Virus genome (UHGV): UHGV-0217911
Strand: one strand, 5' to 3'
Source of the DNA: a virus
Length of the DNA stretch: 43,385 bases
Shown here: positions 2,245-28,782 of the stretch, piece after piece
Position numbering within the stretch: the first letter of the stretch is position 1
Layout of the letters: each line of letters starts with the position of its first letter
Position numbers and translations under genes: made by a program
Notes under the pieces: model-generated
Told to the model about the DNA's origin: nothing
What the model saw: the letters and a program-made list of their open reading frames with translations, nothing else
Database searches by the model: none

Positions 2245-2323
2245 ACATGGCAACTCAAGGTTTCGACAACCCATCCAAATTCCGCGATGAATGGGATAAG
2301 CAAGCAGAAGGGAAATAATCAAT

Positions 2324-2749
2324 ATGGCGACTGAGAAAAAGAAAGGTGGTCGCCCCTCTGATTATATGCCGGAGGTGGCTAATGACATTTGCGCATTGCT
2401 TTCCTCCGGTGAGAGTCTGCGCAAAGTTTGCGAACGCCCAGGAATGCCGAGCAAAACATCAGTTTTTCGCTGGCTGGCTGAACATCAGGAGTTTCGTGAC
2501 CAGTACGCGAAGGCAACAGAGACTCGGGCCGACTCTATTTTCGAAGAGATATTCGAAATTGCTGACGACGTAATCCCTGATGCCGCCGAGGTGGCAAAGG
2601 CAAGACTTCGCGTTGATACCCGCAAATGGGCGCTGGCCAGAATGAATCCCCGTAAGTATGGCGACAAGGTAACTAATGAGCTTGTCGGCAAAGACGGCGG
2701 CGCAATCCAGATTGAAACATCACCGATGAGCACTCTGTTCGGAAAATGA
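2324..2749 (+). CDS. Terminase small subunit (Sf6 gp1-like)
   Basis: 141 aa, MATEKKKGGRPSDYMPEV... N-terminal HTH-like region, immediately upstream of and overlapping the large terminase. Confidence 0.85.
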   Translation: MATEKKKGGRPSDYMPEVANDICALLSSGESLRKVCERPGMPSKTSVFRWLAEHQEFRDQYAKATETRADSIFEEIFEIADDVIPDAAEVAKARLRVDTRKWALARMNPRKYGDKVTNELVGKDGGAIQIETSPMSTLFGK

Positions 2750-4161
2750 CCTCGATTAATCCTATCTTTGAACCGTTCATTGAGGCGCATCGCTACAAAG
2801 TCGCCAAAGGCGGTCGAGGTAGCGGTAAGTCATGGGCAATTGCGAGGCTGCTTGTTGAAGCGGCGCGTCGGCAGCCTGTGCGCATCCTCTGTGCTCGTGA
2901 ACTGCAAAACAGTATCAGCGATTCGGTAATCCGGTTGCTTGAAGACACCATCGAGCGGGAAGGGTATTCGGCTGAGTTTGAAATTCAGCGTTCAATGATT
3001 CGTCATCTCGGAACGAATGCTGAATTCATGTTCTACGGCATCAAAAACAACCCGACGAAGATTAAATCGCTAGAAGGCATTGATATTTGCTGGGTGGAAG
3101 AAGCGGAAGCGGTAACGAAGGAATCATGGGATATCCTGATACCAACCATCCGTAAGCCGTTCTCTGAAATATGGGTGAGCTTTAACCCGAAAAACATCCT
3201 CGACGATACCTATCAGCGATTCGTAGTAAACCCTCCCGATGATATTTGTCTGCTGACGGTGAACTACACCGACAACCCGCACTTTCCTGAAGTTCTCCGT
3301 CTGGAGATGGAAGAGTGCAAACGCAGAAATCCGACACTGTATCGTCACATCTGGCTTGGTGAGCCGGTAAGCGCAAGTGATATGGCAATCATCAAACGAG
3401 AATGGCTTGAAGCTGCAACCGATGCGCACAAGAAACTCGGATGGAAAGCGAAAGGCGCTGTTGTCTCTGCGCATGACCCATCAGATACAGGGCCAGATGC
3501 TAAAGGTTACGCATCGCGTCACGGTTCGGTAGTTAAGCGCATTGCTGAAGGTCTGCTGATGGACATCAACGAGGGGGCTGACTGGGCTACTTCGCTGGCG
3601 ATTGAAGACGGTGCTGACCACTACTTGTGGGATGGTGATGGTGTCGGTGCAGGGCTACGCAGACAGACAACGGAAGCGTTCTCCGGTAAGAAAATCACCG
3701 CCACGATGTTCAAGGGCAGCGAATCGCCATTTGATGAAGATGCACCGTATCAGGCCGGAGCATGGGCTGATGAAGTCGTACAGGGTGACAACGTTCGTAC
3801 TATTGGCGATGTATTCCGCAATAAGCGAGCGCAATTCTATTACGCGCTGGCTGACAGGCTGTATCTGACATATCGGGCGGTTGTCCACGGTGAGTATGCA
3901 GACCCCGACGACATGCTGAGTTTCGACAAAGAAGCAATAGGCGAGAAGATGCTGGAGAAGCTGTTTGCAGAACTGACGCAGATTCAGCGCAAATTCAATA
4001 ATAACGGGAAGCTGGAGCTTATGACTAAGGTCGAAATGAAGCAGAAGCTCGGTATTCCATCTCCTAACCTGGCTGATGCGTTGATGATGTGTATGCATTG
4101 CCCGGAGTCGGCTGCGCAACCCGACTATTCCAGTTACTCAATTCCTTGTGGTGTGGGTTGA
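2746..4161 (+). CDS. Terminase large subunit (ATPase/nuclease)
   Basis: Walker A motif GGRGSGKS near the N-terminus, 471 aa, positioned between small terminase and portal. Confidence 0.9.
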   Translation: MTSINPIFEPFIEAHRYKVAKGGRGSGKSWAIARLLVEAARRQPVRILCARELQNSISDSVIRLLEDTIEREGYSAEFEIQRSMIRHLGTNAEFMFYGIKNNPTKIKSLEGIDICWVEEAEAVTKESWDILIPTIRKPFSEIWVSFNPKNILDDTYQRFVVNPPDDICLLTVNYTDNPHFPEVLRLEMEECKRRNPTLYRHIWLGEPVSASDMAIIKREWLEAATDAHKKLGWKAKGAVVSAHDPSDTGPDAKGYASRHGSVVKRIAEGLLMDINEGADWATSLAIEDGADHYLWDGDGVGAGLRRQTTEAFSGKKITATMFKGSESPFDEDAPYQAGAWADEVVQGDNVRTIGDVFRNKRAQFYYALADRLYLTYRAVVHGEYADPDDMLSFDKEAIGEKMLEKLFAELTQIQRKFNNNGKLELMTKVEMKQKLGIPSPNLADALMMCMHCPESAAQPDYSSYSIPCGVG

Positions 4162-18621: not shown

Positions 18622-18795
18622 ATGATAGTCAAGTCAGACGCACCAAAGTACCCTTTGCGCATCCCATTAGAGGTTAAGTTAGCAATCGAGAAGTCAGCGA
18701 AAGAAAATGGTCGCTCAATAAATACCGAGATGGTAATGCGGTTGGTGGATAGTTTAAGGCGGGATAGTTCTAAAGGTAATCTAGCAAAAAGTTGA
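18622..18795 (+). CDS. arc: Arc-like ribbon-helix-helix repressor
   Basis: 57 aa; PLRIPLEVKLAIEKSAKENGRSINTEMVMRL matches the Arc RHH pattern, with GGAGG 5 nt upstream of the ATG. Confidence 0.7.
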   Translation: MIVKSDAPKYPLRIPLEVKLAIEKSAKENGRSINTEMVMRLVDSLRRDSSKGNLAKS

Positions 18796-18857
18796 AGCCC
18801 CAACTGCGGTAACAGTCAGGGCTTCGTTATCAACAAATCGGCTTAGGAAATATTGAC

Positions 18858-19836: not shown

Positions 19837-21915
19837 ATGACAGACATTACAGCTAATGTTGTAGTGAGTATGCCTTCGCAACTCTTCACTATGGCTCGTT
19901 CTTTTAAAGCGGTTGCCAATGGCAAAATTTATATCGGTAAAATTGACACTGACCCGGTAAATCCTGAAAACCAGATTCAGGTTTATGTGGAGAACGAAGA
20001 TGGTTCTCACGTTCCTGTTGCACAGCCAATCATCATTAACTCTGGCGGGTATCCTGTATATAACGGACAGATTGCCAAATTCGTTACCGTGCAAGGCCAT
20101 TCTATGGCTGTTTATGATGCATATGGTGCGCAGCAGTTTTATTTTCCTAATGTGCTGAAGTATGACCCTGATCAGTTTCAGAAGAGGTTGGCATCCTTTG
20201 ATGATGGTGATGGGGATGAATTAGTGTCGGTGAAACAACCATTCCCCGGAGCAGCAAATCAAACTCAACACCAAAAGAACCAACAAATCATTGATGTTCT
20301 TGACTTCGGTGCTCATCCATCGAATGCTGACAATAAAGTAGCTCTGCAATTTGCGCTAGATGCAATATATAGCATTGGAGGAGGTACACTACAGTTTTCA
20401 CTACCAGGCATATATACTTTGCTTTCTGAGTTGCAAATAAAATCAAATACTCACCTAAAGATGACTGATGGCGTAACCATTAAACGTAATTTTTCTAATG
20501 ACGTCATGCTGAGAATAAGCCCTAATACTGGCACTAACATTAAAATAACAGGCGGAATACTAGATGGAGGAGGACAAGACCACCCTACAGATCCTTTTGA
20601 CATCATTGCAGCCTCCTCACCAAGAAATCTTTCTATTGTTGGAGTAACATTTCTTGATGTAGTCGATTTTCATGCTGTAGATATTGCTGACGGGCAAGGG
20701 GTGATTATAAGAGACTGTAAGTTTCTTGGCTTCAAACCACTTTCCAACCGAAATTATTCAGAAGCGATCCAGTTAGATCCGGGGATTGAATCTCTTGGCG
20801 ATTATTACCCAAACATCAATGTTCTTGTTGATAACTGTTATTTTGGTTCAAATCCACAAAATACCACCACTGGGTTTGGGGCGTGGGGGGCGGGGGTTGG
20901 GAACCATGCTAATTCATATGGGAATCAGGACAAAAATATAAGGGTCATAAACTGCAGGTTCGATGGAATGCTCTTTGCCGGGGTAAGGGTTTTCAACTGG
21001 TATGATTGGGTGGTTAGCGGATGCTCTTTCTATAACAGTACCGCGCGAGGAGTTCATGTAACCCCATTCCCATCATCATCAAAACCACAGGGGGCAAGGA
21101 GGGGGCGCATTGTTGGCAATTATTTTGAAGGCGTTAGATCCCCGATTCTTCTGGCTGCACCTACATATCCATATACAGATACATCAGATGCATTTCATGA
21201 AGATATCGTAATATCCAACAATTCCATGTTTATTACAGAGTCTCAATCATATGCAGTAGACGCAAGATGGGTTTCAGGACTAACTGTCACTGGAAACACA
21301 GCAAGAGGAGGAATCGGTTTTTTCAAAGGTGATTTTATTAATAAATCAATCATCTCTAATAATGAATACGATTCAGGAACATCAAGTTCTTTATGGATTT
21401 CTGAAACTAATGCAGAAGAATTTATAGGGTCTGGTTTTTCGCATGATGTTGTAATTTCTAGCAACATCTTTAGAAACATTTCCCTGCATGGGATTCATAT
21501 TAATGGTAAATATTCAAATGTTACTATTCAATCAAACATTATAGTTGGGGTTTCTACCGCAGATAATAACCATAATGGCATACGAATTGACTCTGGTGCA
21601 GAAAATGTAATTGTTAGTTCAAATCAAATTCGTGATGGCGTTGCAAATAATAAACCATCAGTTGGTATATTTGCTACATCAAGCTGTAAGAGCGTGTCAT
21701 TTATAGGGAATGTTTCATTTGGAACATCAGCCACACAGAATAATCAAGCTACAGATAAAAGCTCACTTGTGATATTTGGGCAAGAAGGCAACCCAACATC
21801 TAGCGGAGTTGGAGCACCAGTTGGTTCTATTTACACTCGTTCTGATGGAGGTGGAAATACAGTACTTTATATAAAGGAAAGCAACACAAATGCTACAGGT
21901 TGGGTTAATAAGTAA
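19837..21915 (+). CDS. Tailspike protein: conserved P22-type N-terminal head-binding domain plus a divergent beta-helix receptor-binding domain
   Basis: The first ~110 aa ([13 protein letters not shown]...[25 protein letters not shown]...[24 protein letters not shown]) are P22 gp9-like. The remainder is AT-rich and unlike P22, with repetitive beta-helix-like segments. Confidence 0.85.
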
Positions 21916-22199
21916 AACCAGCATTTAAATACAATATATATCATAAAACTTACATAATAGTTATAACTATAATTCTTGCTTAAGAATTTATAAAAACTGA
22001 GACACACAAAGCTTTGCACTGGATTGCAAGGCTTTGTGCTCTTCTATGCTGAGTGGCTACATGTTTGAAGATCGTTGTGCCGTATTTGTGACATACACAT
22101 GACAACATCATGCATCAGCTTTCTGTTTGTGCCATCAACTATAGCTTAGTGAATGCGGTTAATGCTTGCTAAAACAGATAGTTATGATTGGTGCTACAG

Positions 22200-22245
22200 A
22201 TTCGTAATGCGAAGGTCGTAGGTTCGACTCCTATTATCGGCACCA
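22200..22245 (+). repeat. 46-bp copy of the tRNA-Thr (thrW-type) 3' end from anticodon loop to CCA; attR core of the P22-like prophage
   Basis: ATTCGTAATGCGAAGGTCGTAGGTTCGACTCCTATTATCGGCACCA carries the CGT anticodon loop, T-arm and acceptor 3' strand, but the 5' half of the tRNA is absent. Confidence 0.8.
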
Positions 22246-22849
22246 TTAAGAAAATCAATAACTTAGCTTAACTTCTCTAAGAAATTGTATCTTCTGTTAT
22301 CACTTACAAACGCCTATACGTTGTTATGGGCTTTGGTAGTGTAACACGTATGGGCGAGTAGTTCACAGGCTCAACCTCGTAACAAGTTCCTTTGAAGCTG
22401 GAAGACGTGCCACCGTCTCTAAACCTTCTACCAAAACTCTTAGCAAGATGTTCCACACCTGGCGCGGTGTCCAATGATGCTACACGTCGTGAGACGTTGC
22501 AGAGGATAAACAGGCTAAATGATGGGAAGAGTTTTAAGTGCATAGTGGATTAAAGCCCACCTCTTCAAAACCTAACTTGATCGGGAAAGAATCAAGCTCT
22601 AGCACGGTTTCGTCCACCGGAGTACAACGGGTGCCTGATAAGAGAAGAACTGCTAAGACTTCATAGCTTTTGTGAAAAAGCCCTTTTTAGTGGATACGCC
22701 TACGGCGCTTATTTTTTGGTATAACCATCAAAGGCGCTTTATGGCTCCTATTGTCTTGAAAATGTATCTTTACTTGTATTGTGTTTTATGCGTAGCCTTC
22801 CTGTGTAGTATGTAACTTGTTAATTTTCATATGAATACAGAGGCACACG

Positions 22850-23002
22850 ATGAAAAACATTGCAGCTATCAAACGTAATAACCGCAAGATTCACGCTCGT
22901 AAGTTCCTGTCTACGCCAGAAGGAAAAGCCTGGCTAGAGCGTAAACAGCGAGAGAACGAAGAAAGAAAACTCCTTAGTGAGTTGAAATGGCTTAAGGATT
23001 GA
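22850..23002 (+). CDS. Possible small basic protein (50 aa)
   Basis: ATG with GAGG 7 nt upstream; product MKNIAAIKRNNRKIHARKFLSTPEGKAWLERKQRENEERKLLSELKWLKD. Below the ORF-track length cutoff. Confidence 0.3.
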   Translation: MKNIAAIKRNNRKIHARKFLSTPEGKAWLERKQRENEERKLLSELKWLKD

Positions 23003-23567
23003 ATCACCAGTAGGCGCATAACACATCCAGCGATCAAAGATGTGTTTATGCACCTGATAGTGAAATTATTAAAGTCGTTTAGTTAACATCGCCATTGCTT
23101 GAGCAATAATTGCAACAGCGTCCATCTCTTCACTGGAAGCGATGCAAATGCGGTAACTAATAGCCACAACGAATACATCAATAACGAGAAAGTGAATAGT
23201 GTGAAGATGTTTTGAAAGTAAATGCATAACTTCCTCCGGTTTTACGATAGGAAGATTAGAACATGCATTAAATGATGTTACAAGGGTGGTAATTTACCCT
23301 AATAGTCTACTATTCACCTCAATCTACGTCAACCAATATTTGATGTAGATTTAATTTTCTTTTAAAAACAATGTGTTGCAATTTGTTGAATTTTGGGGTT
23401 AGGTTGTTTTTTGAACGTTTTCATCAAGTGTAAAGATACGTTTAGCCTTCATAGTGAGTTCAGTTACTGTCTTTTTCTCTGAAATCGGCGCAGACGTGAT
23501 CAATGTTTAACGCGAAGATCAGCGGCGTCAGGTCCACGCAGCGACAATTCTCAAATATCAGGAGGCA

Positions 23568-24125
23568 TTACGCTTCCTGCTCTTTCTTGATACGTTGCAC
23601 CGTCTGTGTGCTGACACTGAAATCTTTTGCTACGCTCCGAATTGATCCACCATTCGCGAGAGCGGCAACAATTCCCGCTCGATCAATTGCTTTTCCATTA
23701 CCACGTTTTGCTATACGTCCAGCGGCCTTAGCTGCGGCGATCCCCTCACGCTGCCGCTCAAGCATCATTTCACGTTCCATTTGTGCCACTGCTGCAAGCA
23801 CTGTGAGCATCATATTCCCTGCGGGAGAGTTCTTCCCTGTCTTAAAGTCTTCTTTATGGAAATGCACAGACACGCCGCGCTCTGTTAATTGCTCAACCGT
23901 TGCCAGTAGGTCGGCTGTATTACGGCAAAGTCGATCAATGCTGTGAACATGCAAAACATCACCTTCACGCACATAGTTCATCATTGCCTCAAACTGTGGG
24001 CGCTGGGTATTCTTGCCTGACGCTTTATCTTCAAAGACTTTATCAAGAGTTACTCCAGCTAATTGACGGTCTGTGTTTTGTTGGACAGTCGATACCCTAA
24101 TGTATCCAATATTAGCCATTTTCAT
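23568..24125 (-). CDS. Serine recombinase (resolvase/invertase family)
   Basis: 185 aa; N-terminal catalytic domain IGYIRVSTVQQNTDRQ with the active-site serine, and a C-terminal HTH (GGSIRSVAKDFSVSTQTVQRI). Confidence 0.85.
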   Translation of the reverse strand: MKMANIGYIRVSTVQQNTDRQLAGVTLDKVFEDKASGKNTQRPQFEAMMNYVREGDVLHVHSIDRLCRNTADLLATVEQLTERGVSVHFHKEDFKTGKNSPAGNMMLTVLAAVAQMEREMMLERQREGIAAAKAAGRIAKRGNGKAIDRAGIVAALANGGSIRSVAKDFSVSTQTVQRIKKEQEA

Positions 24126-24644
24126 TTTCCTTCTGTGTTGATTTGTGTGTAGTGATTATTGATCGTGTTGATTAGGTGTGTAAAGGACTTTTTTCACTAC
24201 GAAATTCGAAGGTTTTTAGTGTGGTGATTTAGCCTGCTTTATCACTACACGTCTTGCATGAGAATCATGTAGTTACGTTTTGGTAAAATTAGCAAGCTAT
24301 TAAATAGTGTGTTTATTTTGAAAAAATAATTTTTTGTTGCATTAAAGAAACTTGTTCGACAAATGATAGAACGTTTATTGAGCAACAATTTTGCAGTGAT
24401 GCGCTATATGCCGCATTACACAAGGCACAGCGAAAGTGATGTAAAAGTGAAGAAAGCTAACATTGCACTTTTAAGCTACTTTTCATTGAATTTTTACGTA
24501 GGAATTACACAGGGATTAATCATCAATTACATTGAATTTAAGCCTGTTTTAGATGTTTAATTTTGGTAGCAAGAAACACTTTTAGAAGATCATTGCACAG
24601 ATGTTATGTGATAAATGGATGTAACGGTAGGTCACTGTGAACTA

Positions 24645-24780
24645 CCCCCACAGAATTCTGTTATCCTTAACTTTTAAAGAAATATGCACCCTAACAGAAA
24701 ACTGTTACCCCAACCCTAACAGAATTATGTTAGACACCCCCACAGAAAACTGTTAGCCACCCCTACAGAATTTTGTTACC
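24645..24780. repeat. Five iterons (1 + 4 tandem, about 22-23 bp period), each containing the dyad AACAG-N4-CTGTT
   Basis: ACAGAA cores at 24650, 24694, 24719, 24742 and 24765; consensus CCCYWACAGAAWWYTGTTA, followed by an AT-rich stretch. Confidence 0.7.
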
Positions 24781-25742
24781 TATTAGATCAACTATCAAAC
24801 TACAATTAAATTATCTTTTATAAATTCTTTTATCTTTAAAGAATAATTAAGGGATACCCGTTAGGGAGTCTTCGACTATCCCTTAATCTATTGGCATTCG
24901 CCAGAACCTTGCACAAGTTAGAGTGTTAGTCGTTAGACTGCTTGTCATAACACATAGTTTTTTGTTTGTTGATGTTAGTTAGTAGATCTATGTTCGCTAA
25001 TGCCGCTCACAACGAATATGTAATCTACTATGTGCAAATAGCCTACGGCTTGCGTAAGGCTAAATAGTCTTGCGCTGTGCGCAGAACGATAATTAACTAA
25101 CTACCATCTAACGATTGAAATTTACTTGTGCAATAACCTGAGCGTAAGCGAATGGTTGTTAGTGTCTATGCGCTGTGCGCTTCAATAGTTCCATTGATGA
25201 GGCTTACGCCAATCTAACGATCATCAATCTATTTAAGAGAAAATCTATTGTGCAATACTCTGACGAGTGCAATAACCTTGTGTGCTACGCGTTAGCGATG
25301 TTAGCACACAGACAACAACCAACAACAAACAAAAAAGAAAGAATGGTTTTAGTAGTTGAAGGTTAAATAAGTTTCTACCGCTTAAATCAAGCCGTAGGCG
25401 AGCTAAACGTATATAAGGTAGGGAAACACTTAGCGGTAATAGATTAGCTCGTTATAGAGCTTCTGAGAGCTTTGCAGGTATTTTATAAGGTGTTTGAAAT
25501 CAGAGTTTATCTATCATCATCTTTCCATCATCTAACAAATACAAAATAAGCCCCTTAAACAAGCCTCTGACGAGATAAATAGCCTCTACATAAGGGAATG
25601 TCTTGTTTTTATCAAAACCTCGTCAGAATGCGATTGAGAGCGTTTTAGACAATAGTGGAGAATTGTACCAGATAAGATAGCACAAAAAGATAAGAAAAAT
25701 TATAAGAAATTGAAAAAGATCGTATTTTTTATGAAAGGGGGG

Positions 25743-25771
25743 TTGACAAAAGCCTCCATATGTAGTAAAGT
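25743..25771 (+). promoter_or_regulatory. Sigma70-like promoter candidate (TTGACA-17 bp-TAAAGT) for the downstream four-gene module
   Basis: Consensus -35 TTGACA with 17-bp spacing to a TAnnnT -10, about 120 bp upstream of the first ORF. Confidence 0.35.
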
Positions 25772-25891
25772 AAATGTGAGGGGTAAGAAAAGCATCTCCC
25801 CCATCTAAATAATCAAATCACAATACACTGCACTTTGAGCCGTCAGGCTGCAAGGTGTGTTTTTCTTTTATTTGAATAAGGAATTACAAAA

Positions 25892-26074
25892 ATGAAATGG
25901 TTTACACCAAATGACATTGTTTCTGCGTATCTCGCTGGTGAGATGACCCGCTACCAGGTTCGCCAGAATCGTAATACAGCCCGTCGCCGTGGCTACCCAG
26001 AGCGTGAAAAATGCTTTGACGACGCACTAAAAATTATTGATGAACTGCGTAAGGCAGAAGCAGAGAAAGAATAA
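25892..26074 (+). CDS. Small hypothetical protein (60 aa)
   Basis: ORF with AAGGAA 8 nt upstream; first gene of a tightly packed module. Confidence 0.45.
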   Translation: MKWFTPNDIVSAYLAGEMTRYQVRQNRNTARRRGYPEREKCFDDALKIIDELRKAEAEKE

Positions 26075-26095
26075 TAACAGGAGAAGGAGAAAACT

Positions 26096-26266
26096 ATGAG
26101 CGAAACTACAGAAAAGAAAAGACAACCACGCACTTGCTTTCATATTCCTGATGAAGTATTTCAGGTGTTGTTTAAAGAAGCCAGAAGTAAACGTATCACT
26201 GTTACAGATTACATTCTTGATATGTTGAAAAGAGAGGCTGAAACACTCTCAAACAAAAGCAAGTGA
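26096..26266 (+). CDS. Small ribbon-helix-helix-like DNA-binding protein (56 aa)
   Basis: GGAGAAGGAG SD; product MSETTEKKRQPRTCFHIPDEVFQVLFKEARSKRITVTDYILDMLKREAE has a beta-strand/helix/helix arrangement typical of CopG/Arc-type RHH proteins. Below the track cutoff. Confidence 0.5.
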   Translation: MSETTEKKRQPRTCFHIPDEVFQVLFKEARSKRITVTDYILDMLKREAETLSNKSK

Positions 26267-26319
26267 TTTTTATCACCATAGTAGCGCCGTAGAGCGTGAT
26301 TACATCAAGGAGATTTTTA

Positions 26320-26880
26320 ATGATTAATGAAGAACAATTTGTAAAAGTTCCTATGTGGATTCTAAAAATAAGCCAAGTAAACGGGCATAAATTTACAGAT
26401 AGTGCTAAAAACCTTTACTGCTATTTGAGAGGGTTTGATCGTGCATTTCCCTCTTACGCTAAGATAGGCGATGTTTTTGGCATAACACCAAGAGCAGCAG
26501 AAGAAAGGGTTAAGAAATTGCTCGAAATGGGATTAATTATAAAAGATGCACGACCAGGAAGCTCTAACCTTTATCGAGTGCTTGATATTCCAAAAGGAGA
26601 ATCATCACTACCTGATCCTTCTGAGAAAGAAAACGAATCTAATGAAATATTGAATGTTTCAGAAATCATCGTTGAAGAAGAAATACAGGAATCAGAGTTC
26701 CCTGAGCGGCCCGAAATTTTTACTTGGCTTCTTTCCCTTGATAAGAAGAAACCACCGCACGAAGAAACAGAAGACTACGAAGCATTAGAGCGTTATCGTG
26801 ATGAAGTGCTGACGCTCAAGACACCTTTTAACATCGTATTGAATATGATTAATGATGCATTACAAGGAGAAGCCGCATAA
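26320..26880 (+). CDS. Winged-HTH protein resembling phage/plasmid replication initiator N-terminal domains
   Basis: AAGGAG SD before the ATG at 26320. N-terminal NLYCYLRGFDRAFPSYAKIGDVFGITPRAAEERVKKLLEMGLI is a wHTH pattern seen in Rep/replisome-organizer proteins; the C-terminus is acidic. Confidence 0.55.
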   Translation: MINEEQFVKVPMWILKISQVNGHKFTDSAKNLYCYLRGFDRAFPSYAKIGDVFGITPRAAEERVKKLLEMGLIIKDARPGSSNLYRVLDIPKGESSLPDPSEKENESNEILNVSEIIVEEEIQESEFPERPEIFTWLLSLDKKKPPHEETEDYEALERYRDEVLTLKTPFNIVLNMINDALQGEAA

Positions 26881-27188
26881 TGGAAGAAGATATTAGCAAT
26901 GCAATGGAACAACTTTTAGATCTGACTATCTCACTACAAACAAGAATAAATCAAGCCTATTCAGATTTATGCGATTACACGCTCTCTCAATGCGTTATTA
27001 GCTTAATGAAGGTGAATGTAAGCCTTGACGATTTTATCTCTCTGGTGAGCGATTTAGAGCTAATTGAGGACGATGCCAAGATGTGCACTCAAACCATCAC
27101 AGACACCGCCAGCACGTTAAAGGCTGCAAGTGAAGAGATTCAGCAATTAGTAGATGATTTAGCAAAAAGTGCTATTTTCTCTAAATGA
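26880..27188 (+). CDS. Acidic hypothetical protein (102 aa)
   Basis: ORF with start overlapping the upstream stop (translational coupling). Confidence 0.5.
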   Translation: MEEDISNAMEQLLDLTISLQTRINQAYSDLCDYTLSQCVISLMKVNVSLDDFISLVSDLELIEDDAKMCTQTITDTASTLKAASEEIQQLVDDLAKSAIFSK

Positions 27189-27460
27189 TAATGAAAATTA
27201 TTTGCATTTATAACGATTTCATTATATAATAATATTAGGGGTAGATAAAAAGGTTTTGACTGGTGTTAATCCTTCTACTGTCATAAATCCCTGCATATGG
27301 AAGGTGATAGCCTCAAAGGTTGAGTGGCATTAACCTCTAACAAATATTACCTTCCATCCCCTCAAGAAGTTTTAGAATAATCATAACTCCCTCTTTGATT
27401 GTTGATTGTTTCTACGTTGTGTTGATGAATGTTGTTAGGCATTGTGCTTAATTTTGATAA

Positions 27461-27508
27461 AAGCGGGTAGGTGTTATCTCCTTGCCCTTCCCGCTTTTAT
27501 TTTTCATC
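27461..27508 (+). terminator. Terminator-like hairpin plus T-run
   Basis: AAAAGCGGG ... CCCGCTTTT stem with TATTTTT tail. Confidence 0.4.
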
Positions 27509-28182
27509 TATGCTTATCCTAAAGCTCCTTATTTTGTCCGAAAACATTAAAGAGCCTTACACTGATAGTTATATTTTATAACTATTTACTAACATCATTA
27601 AACTCTTATTTAATGACGGAAGTTAGTAACAGAATAATCTATTAAGTTGTTGTCAAAAACAATCATCTGCATAGCGTTAGCCGCAAGCAGAGAGAGTTTA
27701 GCTAAGAATTGTGCAATAACCTTTGGAAATATTGATAGCAAAACGGGTTTTATAGACTGCAAATCTATAATCTTTGGTTGTAAAAACGCTTTTTCTGAAA
27801 CGGTAGATTATTGTTGGTGTAGTTAATCCTATTAAAATTTAATCTGTGAGTAGATGAGAATTGGAATAGTGATTCCTTAAAGCCTTACTTTGTTGCATCC
27901 ACAGCAAAAACAGGCAGCGGTTAGCCACCGCATCCAGAATATCAGATCTTAGTGATTCCAGGGGCAACTCCTAAGAGCCTTCCTTCTAAGATCTGATATT
28001 CATCCTTTAAGCATATCATCAAGTATATTTAAAAAGTGTATTTGCTGATATGTTTAATCCTCTTATAGTTTAACTTATCAATTATGTAATTGCCCGCACG
28101 TTAAAGCCCCTTTGCTGGTCAGAATTAACCTCTTACGGCATTGGGGCTTTTTATTTGTCTGGCACTAACAGGAACGTTATTT

Positions 28183-28380
28183 ATGAAACAAGAAATGATT
28201 ATCAGCAAAGACGGGGAAACGATGATTGTTAGTGATGAAAACCTCATTAAGGTTGCCGCACTGTTGGGAGTTACTCCCGAAAGTCTTCGTTCTACCACTG
28301 CCCAATTATTTAAATCGGCTGATGCGGTTAGTCTTGCTGATGCCCTTAAATCTAAAATTAAACAACTGAAAGGAAAATAA
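28183..28380 (+). CDS. Small hypothetical protein (65 aa), first gene of a six-gene operon
   Basis: ATG at 28183 with AGGA upstream; the track ORF start at 28141 lies inside an upstream hairpin. Confidence 0.5.
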   Translation: MKQEMIISKDGETMIVSDENLIKVAALLGVTPESLRSTTAQLFKSADAVSLADALKSKIKQLKGK

Positions 28381-28384
28381 TCTT

Positions 28385-28768
28385 ATGGCTAACCCATATG
28401 GAAAATTAAAAGCAGTGAATGCGGATAATTCCCGTTCACGCTGTAAGGTAGTAGCTTACGCTGCTGATCCAGTGCTGCAAGATCGCCTCGTCAAACTGGC
28501 TTCACCTCTCACTGACGATCTTATTGTCGGGGCTTTGCTGAAAGCCGATGGCACCAAAGCAACAACTGCATCTGATATTGCTCACGTAGTAGTTGAACCG
28601 GCTTATGAAGGACAGGAAAGCGTAGTGGTTGCACATCCTACTTTCGTTATTCTGGCTGAAGATGGGATTGAATTTAACAGCATGGAAAAGGCAAGTGTTA
28701 TTGCAAAACTGCAATCTCTCGGCTTTGTAATTGCTGGTTATGAAGAACTTGCGATCCCTACGACTTAA
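28385..28768 (+). CDS. Hypothetical protein (127 aa)
   Basis: Tightly packed behind the preceding gene (4-bp gap); no motif recognized. Confidence 0.6.
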   Translation: MANPYGKLKAVNADNSRSRCKVVAYAADPVLQDRLVKLASPLTDDLIVGALLKADGTKATTASDIAHVVVEPAYEGQESVVVAHPTFVILAEDGIEFNSMEKASVIAKLQSLGFVIAGYEELAIPTT

Positions 28769-28782
28769 CAAGGAAAATAATA

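Follow-up and report, generated by a model that had tools for sequence, protein, structure and literature searches.

The stretch of DNA analyzed here, referred to below as the window, is 43,385 nucleotides long (UHGV virus genome UHGV-0217911) and is Escherichia coli DNA. Its bases 1 to ~22000 correspond to a P22-like prophage, late region, after which comes an island of ~11 kb within a satellite-like region (22000-34270). The island gene set includes a serine recombinase, several small open reading frames (ORFs), one of them Arc-like (56 aa, 26096-26266) and a candidate DNA-binding protein, a 194-amino-acid (aa) protein that weakly matches O-type replication initiators in Pfam and PHROGs scans, and a 102-aa acidic protein. 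The latter is followed by a long gap without genes and then by a capsid module of three ORFs, downstream of which lie a tape-measure-like (TMP-like) gene, a Dit-like gene, and a tyrosine integrase gene. The subject of this work is the first part of the gap (27256-27508), where an earlier note, made from the sequence alone, had proposed a small RNA of about 200 nt or a cis-regulatory leader. With about as much confidence as doubt, we favor the interpretation that this stretch is the promoter-proximal domain of a ~950-nt structured untranslated leader that acts in cis, that its transcription would end by default at the first of two terminators (T1), and that expression of the capsid genes would need terminator read-through.

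Of 5426 complete E. coli genomes, 282 contain the gap, with identities of 88-100%. The second E. coli lineage, here called the L044 type, comprises 68 genomes and is ~60% identical to the window in the gap and 56% identical in the capsid protein. Scans of other genomes and of metagenomes via capsid-protein alignment gave 90 further loci; ten genome loci belong to Citrobacter, Kluyvera, Kosakonia, Phytobacter, Buttiauxella, Scandinavium, and Raoultella, and protein matches additionally name Klebsiella, Enterobacter, Cronobacter, and Pluralibacter. Removal of near-duplicates left 52 representatives, including 38 with a confident promoter call. All 38 are organized by a common plan: (i) a near-consensus promoter is located right after the upstream ORF, (ii) it is followed by 0.36-0.95 kb without genes or a conserved ORF, and (iii) this interval is succeeded by a small ORF, a decoration-like gene, and the capsid gene.

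The likely leader promoter, TTTGCA-18-TATAAT, has 10 of 12 matches to the consensus and is the best promoter-like site detected by the promoter scan in the region 26000-29000. Judged by its sequence, it has both the 16-18-nt spacer and the conservation in relatives expected of a sigma-70 promoter, as a site scoring 9.5-11 out of 12, mostly TTGACA-17-xAxxAT, occurs at the same position in 38 of the 52 relatives. The only part of the gap matched by blastn in other genera (relatives from Citrobacter and Scandinavium) is 27182-27250; by this measure, conservation between genera is limited to the promoter and the first ~15 bases of the transcript, and inspection by eye shows shorter motifs in common. 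In most of the 38 relatives, AGGG(G/T) lies 6-9 nt past the -10 element, and the predicted 5' end of the window's RNA is AGGGGU. The earlier note had located the promoter 55 bp further downstream, at a TTGACT-17-CATAAAT element. The spacer of that element is in fact 20 nt long (27256-27261 and 27282-27288), the scanner does not list the site, and its TTGACT reads TTAGTT in the E. coli variants L003, L004, and L008. We therefore rejected 27256-27288 as a sigma-70 promoter by its spacing and conservation; the TTGAC bases are the 5' arm of a small hairpin (27256-27260/27265-27269). In the window, the interval from the second terminator (T2) to the start codon contains no promoter match and, at 26 nt, is too short for one.

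The spacer of the leader promoter contains an imperfect copy of the palindrome TAAC-N6-GTTA, and another copy overlaps the Shine-Dalgarno region of the first capsid-module ORF. Perfect TAAC-N5-7-GTTA palindromes are found in the promoter spacers of many relatives; in many relatives, TAAC(A)-N5-6-GTTA also precedes the first ORF, between the last terminator and the start codon. Since the first copy is untranscribed, the pair, separated by ~950 bp, looks like putative DNA operators for a DNA-binding protein, and its arrangement suggests that the leader promoter may be repressed in the resting island. If so, the terminators may also halt polymerases arriving from the upstream genes. The palindrome is present twice per element in the relatives L010, L044, L054, L055, L057, and others.

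Two predicted structures of the gap, T1 and T2, combine a GC-rich stem-loop with an immediate U-tract and are thus candidate intrinsic terminators. The terminator-like hairpin with a T-run reported in the earlier note is well founded and corresponds to T1: its stem (27457-27471/27486-27500) has a folding energy of -21.6 kcal/mol (z-score -6.5), and none of 200 shuffles was as stable. T1 consists of a 12-bp stem with a GCGGG/CCCGC base and the U-tract UUUUAUUUUU, and its predicted product is an RNA of ~265-270 nt; it was missed by the consensus scanner because its loop exceeds 8 nt. In the L044-type islands, a terminator of unrelated sequence occupies the same relative place, ~260 nt past the -10 element. 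T2 has a folding energy of -23.0 kcal/mol (z-score -4.4, 0 of 200 shuffles as stable), and its U-tract ends 26 nt before the ORF at 28183. Most of the relatives listed have a GC hairpin with a T-run at most 62 nt ahead of the first start codon of the capsid module. Relatives in other genera retain the leader and, in most of those listed, this terminator ahead of the first ORF.

The predicted RNA of 269 nt between the start site and the end of T1 (27237-27505) has a folding energy of -75.6 kcal/mol (z-score -3.9) on the plus strand, and its complement one of -59.5 kcal/mol (z-score -2.5). Its 5' part, domain I, is formed by nested stems; the L044-type islands have 5' stem variants GAAUCG/CGAUUC, GAAUAG/CUAUUC, and AAUCU/AGAUU. 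In the small hairpin of domain I, UUGAC is replaced by UUAGU in L003, L004, and L008, and all five pairs remain possible via G-U or A-U pairing. This substitution is kept paired only on the plus strand, as its G-U pairs correspond to A-C mismatches on the other strand.

The second structure, hairpin H1, is what the earlier note had described as a 9-bp inverted repeat at 27298-27355. The hairpin itself is real; its arms are 27297-27309 and 27345-27357, so that the stem is 13 bp long and the coordinates given before were one base off. H1 has a folding energy of -24.3 kcal/mol (z-score -5.6), with 0 of 200 shuffles as stable. The pair table of H1 was computed directly, since MAFFT alignments shifted its 3' arm, and a covariance model was added. 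The L044-type H1 has a 13-bp stem in six of seven relatives, with 10 of the 13 positions changed on both sides compared to the window; within that lineage, G-C alternates with G-U and U-A with U-G. The loop motifs CCUCAA and CUAAC are shared by both lineages. A covariance model built from the L044-type H1 alone matches the window at 27300-27354 on the plus strand (14.7 bits, E-value 0.0019 in the 994-nt gap), compared with an E-value of 2.5 on the minus strand. A covariance model of the L044-type H1 also matches T1 (E-value 1.7e-5 in the 994-nt gap), and the T1 stem of the window (AAAAGCGGGUAGG/CCUUCCCGCUUUU) closely resembles the L044-type H1 stem (GAAAGCGGGGUAG/CUACCCCGCUUUC; L044 positions 1142-1194); T1 and the L044-type H1 could have a common origin or a common binding partner.

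Between H1 and T1, a hairpin with a CU-rich loop has as its L044-type counterpart a 9-bp stem of other sequence (GAAAUUGUU/AAUAGUUUC) with the loop UCCCUC. Its 3' arm in the window contains two copies of TTGATTG; three copies are found in L003 and two or three among the variants, and this change of copy number suggests slippage. The repeat lies in a GU-rich stretch, and distant relatives are also GU-rich there. The small hairpin that follows (27437-27449) has equivalents in other relatives, ranging from AGAGC/GCUCU to AAAGC/GCUUU, with a boxA-like GCUCUUUA in the 3' arm. When folded independently, the window-type and L044-type leaders have the same layout, i.e., a nested 5' domain, H1, the CU-loop hairpin, and a terminator.

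Stems that vary on both sides are also found in the rest of the leader, between T1 and T2. In the hairpin at 27917-27931, GCGGU/ACCGC alternates with GCGAU/AUCGC and GCGAU/GUCGC. The long hairpin at 27937-28001 was compared at the same place in L002-L008, L044, L045, and L111-L115. All 15 E. coli-type sequences have a stem of 16-17 bp, formed by three unrelated allelic sequences, and the loop motifs GAUUCC and CCUAAG are kept. A CCUAAGA-loop hairpin ahead of the last terminator is also present in L010, L014, L017, and L074. The loop sequence (A)CUCCUAAG of the long hairpin resembles the anti-Shine-Dalgarno end of 16S rRNA.

As far as sequence comparison can tell, the stretch is an RNA structure on the plus strand, since its stems are changed on both sides and its G-U pairs favor that strand. 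These statements on covariation rest on the E. coli-type lineages, the main comparisons being between two or three lineages, and several of the double changes may be single replacement events. The complete set of leaders proved too divergent and modular for a family-wide consensus structure by MAFFT and RNAalifold. Two of the tests named in the earlier note, covariation and conservation in related islands, came out positive: compensatory stem changes are seen, and the region is kept in related islands, the 5' domain being 97-99% identical among E. coli variants. The coordinates of all features are collected in the table.

Features of the leader and its surroundings in the window (terminators, hairpins, promoter, and operator-like sites are predictions)
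Feature	Position	Strand	Description
Tailspike-sized ORF	19837-21915		In the P22-like prophage part of the window
102-aa acidic protein ORF	26880-27188		Directly upstream of the gap
Gene-free gap	27189-28182		994 bp, between the 102-aa ORF and the capsid module
Likely leader promoter	27201-27230	+	-35 TTTGCA (27201-27206), 18-nt spacer, -10 TATAAT (27225-27230)
Operator-like palindrome, copy 1	27211-27224		TAAC-N6-ATTA, imperfect form of TAAC-N6-GTTA; in promoter spacer, untranscribed
Domain I	27237-27292	+	Nested stems 27237-42/27287-92, 27244-47/27279-82, 27250-53/27271-74; in minimum free energy and centroid folds
Small hairpin in domain I	27256-60/27265-69	+	Includes the TTGACT of the promoter proposed earlier
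Hairpin H1	27297-27357	+	13-bp outer stem (one G-U), internal loops GCCUCAA and CUAACAAA, 7-bp inner hairpin 27317-23/27330-36
CU-rich-loop hairpin	27373-27412	+	Loop ..CUCCCUCUU..; TTGATTG repeat, two copies (27395-27408), in 3' arm
Small hairpin AGGC-AUUGU-GCUU	27437-27449	+	GCAUUGUGCUU common to L013, L059, and L063
Intrinsic terminator T1	27457-27505	+	Arms 27457-27471/27486-27500, then TTTTATTTTT to 27505
Rest of leader	27506-28102	+	Between T1 and T2
Palindromic hairpin	27565-27585		Perfect palindromes
Hairpin GCGGU-UAGCC-ACCGC	27917-27931	+	
Long hairpin	27937-28001	+	Perfect 16-bp stem in the window; loop motifs GAUUCC and CUCCUAAGAG
Intrinsic terminator T2	28103-28157	+	AAAGCCCC...GGGGCUUU, then UUUAUUU
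Operator-like palindrome, copy 2	28166-28179		TAACAGGAACGTTA; overlaps Shine-Dalgarno region of the ORF starting at 28183
65-aa ORF	28183-28380	+	First ORF of the capsid module
Decoration-like protein gene	28385-28768	+	127 aa
Major capsid protein gene	28783-29814	+	343 aa, lambda-E type; homologues carry PF03864

The inheritance of the leader can be traced in seven mosaic E. coli variants. Their 5' domain is the most evenly conserved segment, at 97-99% identity to the window; their upstream modules are unrelated (29-56% in forced alignment), and L006-L008 carry another allele of the entire capsid module (41-51%). The segment that travels as a unit comprises the 102-aa gene, promoter, 5' domain, and mid-leader, and the recombination breakpoints are located in the 3' part of the leader. 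In L005, the gap has a 15-nt indel and rearrangements. A natural deletion of the promoter and 5' domain is observed in L009 (E. coli HH107, positions 2248-3505), where an IS1 insertion removed both and left the leader from window position ~27644 onward together with the capsid module.

The island itself was examined in strain D8 (NZ_CP010151), which is 100% identical to the window over the 1031-bp query (27150-28180). There, it directly adjoins the tRNA-Thr gene thrW and is followed by an integrase gene, a MarR-family gene, and vat. The gene content looks like that of a phage satellite, as judged from protein similarities. Portal and terminase genes are absent from the ~11 kb. To our knowledge, this gene set fits none of the described P4, PICI, cfPICI, or PLE sets. 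Our literature search found no account of the leader and none that treats this type of island as a satellite; publications describe the thrW/vat island only as a pathogenicity island of ~20 kb. A second long stretch without a substantial ORF, ~1.7 kb, lies at 24126-25891, with the serine recombinase gene on one side and the small ORFs of the regulatory or replication module on the other. At the 3' end of the 102-aa ORF (27153-27177), a 25-mer recurs without mismatch in the P22-like phage vB_SemP_Emek, where it is intergenic and unannotated, between an Sf6 gene-38-like gene and orf149; it also matches phages phiv205-1, E212, and EC.P3 and is absent elsewhere in the window, including the window's own P22-like prophage part.

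Searches for known RNA families gave no match in the gap. At the gathering score, only two of the 4227 families of Rfam 15 were detected in the window, neither of them in the gap: sar (18790-18856, minus strand, 70 bits), inside the P22-like prophage, and IS009 (42782-42982, plus strand, 197 bits), near the right end. For 27100-28250 at E-values up to 10, the best hit was a nematode snoRNA model with 26 bits against a gathering score of 48. In six relatives compared to Rfam, only a TPP riboswitch was found, located elsewhere, and the L014 gap had no match. Comparison of the gap to 50,697 phage genomes in near and distant modes revealed no similarity, lambda cos and phage late promoters included, so that neither a cos site nor a late promoter copied from a phage is supported by sequence.

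The coding potential of the stretch was assessed as well. None of the 13 RefSeq records examined has a coding sequence annotated in the gap. The statement of the earlier note that the only ORF has 8 codons is correct for ATG-started ORFs of the plus strand (ATG at 27297 to TGA at 27323); TTG- and GTG-started ORFs of 25-36 aa are present besides. The possibility that the 8-codon ORF (27297-27323) encodes a leader peptide was rejected, as it is absent from the L044-type islands.

Motifs resembling boxA recur in the leaders. A boxA-like GCUCUU(U)A(C/U) is located at +205 to +273 in 20 of 38 relatives, where it always makes up the 3' side of a small covarying hairpin. In most E. coli variants, the 3' arm of T1 contains CGCUCUUA (DNA CGCTCTTA, the core of lambda boxA), and the corresponding arm of the window reads CGCUUUUA (DNA CGCTTTTA) at 27492-27499, a degenerate copy. 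The motif being an arm of a covarying hairpin argues for structure rather than for a single-stranded boxA. In L010 (gap positions 270-335), UCAGACAAUCU and CUCGAAGAU (DNA TCAGACAATCT and CTCGAAGAT) are shared with the leader of E. coli ribosomal RNA (rrn) operons. A general similarity to rrn leaders, comprising boxA and a downstream block, was discarded: it exceeds shuffles only in L010 (z-score 3.5) and not in the window.

The favored model of a structured cis-acting leader would operate as follows. Transcription would start at ~27237 from the promoter with the operator-like palindrome in its spacer, and the nascent RNA would fold into domain I, H1, and the CU-loop hairpin. By default, polymerases would stop at T1 (~27503) and release a non-coding RNA of ~265-270 nt; those that pass T1 would encounter T2, where termination would give a non-coding RNA of ~920 nt. 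Thus, with two strong predicted terminators between the only credible promoter and the first ORF, the default products would be non-coding RNAs, and capsid genes would be expressed only if both terminators are read through. Such expression implies that polymerase becomes resistant to terminators while a helper phage grows or the island is induced. The island appears to encode no Q- or N-like protein, so the read-through factor would be provided by the helper phage, possibly as a helper-encoded Q, or by the RNA itself. Of the two possibilities left by the earlier note, a small RNA or a leader, the absence of T1 outside E. coli, where the leader and, in most of the relatives listed, a pre-ORF terminator are kept, favors the leader. 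What stands of that proposal is a non-coding, plus-strand-folded unit bounded by a promoter and a terminator. Its size of ~200 nt does not stand, as the promoter lies further upstream and the predicted RNA is correspondingly longer; nor would it be free-standing, as the stretch is probably the first domain of the longer structured leader running to T2.

Several observations weigh against this model. The start site is predicted, and so are the two termination events at T1 and T2 and the requirement for antitermination. Pfam and PHROGs scans of ten island proteins revealed no Q-, N-, or RfaH-like protein, the other island ORFs being either at most 79 aa long or antisense to the recombinase gene. 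Only the E. coli lineages have T1. The evidence for H1 covariation comes essentially from two lineages and may reflect one replacement event instead; the cross-lineage H1 model is weak, and in a search of 207 kb it gave an E-value of 0.16 for L002 and L005 and did not report the H1 of the window. A simple H1/T1 attenuator of the classical type is unlikely, since in three sequences from two lineages neither the H1 3' arm with the T1 5' arm nor the H1 5' arm with the T1 3' arm pairs better than shuffles. The conserved loop motifs suggest a role of the RNA beyond carrying terminators, and transcription from the upstream same-strand genes could reach the capsid genes.

Those loops lead to the strongest competitor of the cis-acting leader, which we regard as rather unlikely: an independent trans-acting non-coding RNA, either the ~270-nt promoter-to-T1 transcript or the whole promoter-to-T2 one, for which the terminators only set the 3' ends. 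It might serve as a P4 CI-like immunity RNA, as a regulator of helper-phage mRNA, or as a protein sponge via its CU-rich loops. The stretch has its own promoter and terminator, its loops are kept (CCUCAA, CUAAC, UCCCUC, GAUUCC, CCUAAG) as the stems vary, a pattern typical of partner-contacting loops, a TTAAYCCTNYTA-like motif occurs five times in the gap, and exchange of the capsid module leaves the 5' domain joined to the 102-aa gene. However, the leader is located on the same strand directly ahead of the capsid module in 38 of 38 relatives, no complementary target was identified, and what is conserved is not the ~270-nt unit, since T1 is missing outside E. coli. Short of a systematic search, the complementarity of P4 CI type found in the gap is limited to one perfect 9-nt match (27403-27411/27657-27665) and weaker ones, with no equivalent seen by eye in the L044 type. 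A bolder version of the leader hypothesis, which we consider unlikely, assigns the RNA an active part: the leaders (0.36-0.95 kb) would be a new large structured RNA class of undescribed capsid-encoding satellite-like islands of Enterobacteriaceae and would decide on capsid-gene expression, either by making polymerases from their own repressor-controlled promoter resistant to T1 and T2, in the manner of put or EAR and at a much larger size, or by sensing a helper-phage factor with the CU-rich loops.

It is quite improbable, in our view, that the gap functions at the DNA level, as a replication origin, a packaging (cos/pac) site, or a cluster of protein sites, with the inverted repeats being protein sites or cruciforms. 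The gap does follow the weakly O-like replication-initiator ORF, lies just ahead of the head genes, where lambda has cos, and contains the TTGATTG repeats, the perfect palindromes at 27565-27585, and the TAAC-N6-GTTA pair with one untranscribed copy. Yet its stems stay paired via G-U pairs, which would be A-C mismatches on the other strand and have no bearing on duplex DNA, and stems of 13-17 bp enclose loops of 33-45 nt with conserved sequence; moreover, the same gap accompanies unrelated upstream replication modules, and no phage genome, lambda cos included, has similarity to it. The unrelated upstream modules also make it unlikely that the gap is an iteron origin served by the 194-aa O-like protein. 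A resemblance of GGGGGCGACCTCC in the L044 type to lambda cosN was dismissed because this segment is replaced by unrelated sequence in the L002 type. It is quite possible that some DNA sites, for instance the palindromes, exist alongside the RNA. Least of all do we expect that the stretch has no function, i.e., that a promoter-like site, a hairpin, and a terminator arose by chance in AT-rich island DNA and the terminator merely ends the upstream operon. The region is AT-rich, the scanner finds fewer promoter-like sites in it than in shuffles (3 vs 8.9), and T1, ~270 nt downstream of the 102-aa ORF, could terminate that operon; such an origin is at odds with 97-99% conservation across the mosaic variants, with a plan kept in several other Enterobacteriaceae genera, with fold z-scores of -3.9 to -6.5, and with the compensatory changes.

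The cis-acting leader bears on a general problem of phage satellites, which must turn on their few structural genes at the right point of the helper's cycle; for most satellite families, no such switch is known. A conserved folded leader with built-in terminators offers a testable handle on silencing and induction of an island that, with its relatives, is found in 282 + 68 of 5426 complete E. coli genomes and in several other Enterobacteriaceae genera, and whose copy in the window neighbors the vat toxin gene at thrW. With the leader comes an RNA family absent from Rfam. Should the RNA itself confer terminator resistance or sense the helper, this would be a new case of transcription elongation being controlled by RNA.

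Among known systems, the closest in layout is the late leader of phage lambda, in which the promoter PR' produces the 6S RNA of ~200 nt ending at tR', Q provides antitermination, and several hundred untranslated bases precede the first late gene. Both leaders have a promoter upstream of structural genes and a short terminated transcript, predicted to be ~270 nt here, and in the island this is followed by T2 and the capsid module. In contrast to lambda, no Q gene or recognizable Q-binding element was found in the island; the structure covaries here, which is not known for the lambda 6S region; and the island leader has a palindrome of the repressor-bound kind in the promoter spacer and two terminators ~650 nt apart.

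Terminators that block only those polymerases that did not start at the cognate promoter are known from the put RNAs of phage HK022 and from the EAR element of Bacillus. The island leader resembles these systems in having a structured RNA just past the promoter and terminators downstream in the operon, and by analogy a repressor-controlled promoter followed by two terminators would fit such a scheme. It differs in size (0.36-0.95 kb vs ~70 to 120 nt), and the likeness is one of description, action on RNA polymerase being hypothetical here.

The promoter-proximal untranslated leader of satellite P4 ends prematurely and gives rise to the small stable CI RNA. A satellite element with a promoter-proximal, prematurely ending untranslated leader would be common to both cases, but P4 employs complementarity of seqA and seqC to seqB, and no conserved long-range complementarity of that kind was seen here; the genes apparently controlled here are capsid rather than replication genes, and there is neither sequence similarity nor an Rfam match. 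GOLLD and ROOL are phage and prophage RNAs of several hundred nucleotides with many covarying stems and conserved loops. The leader is like them in size, in its carriage by mobile elements, and in covarying stems with conserved loops; unlike them, it matches neither Rfam family, is fixed in its place as the leader of an operon, and has terminators at its end. To the Nus boxA elements of rrn leaders, lambda nut sites, and CRISPR leaders it is related by a boxA-like motif, which 20 of 38 relatives have at a fixed place and most E. coli variants also carry, with the differences that the window's copy CGCUUUUA is degenerate and that the motif always lies within a hairpin arm. Taken together, these comparisons of sequence and predicted structure point to a terminator-containing leader of a mobile-element late operon, probably built from a previously undescribed family of structured RNAs.

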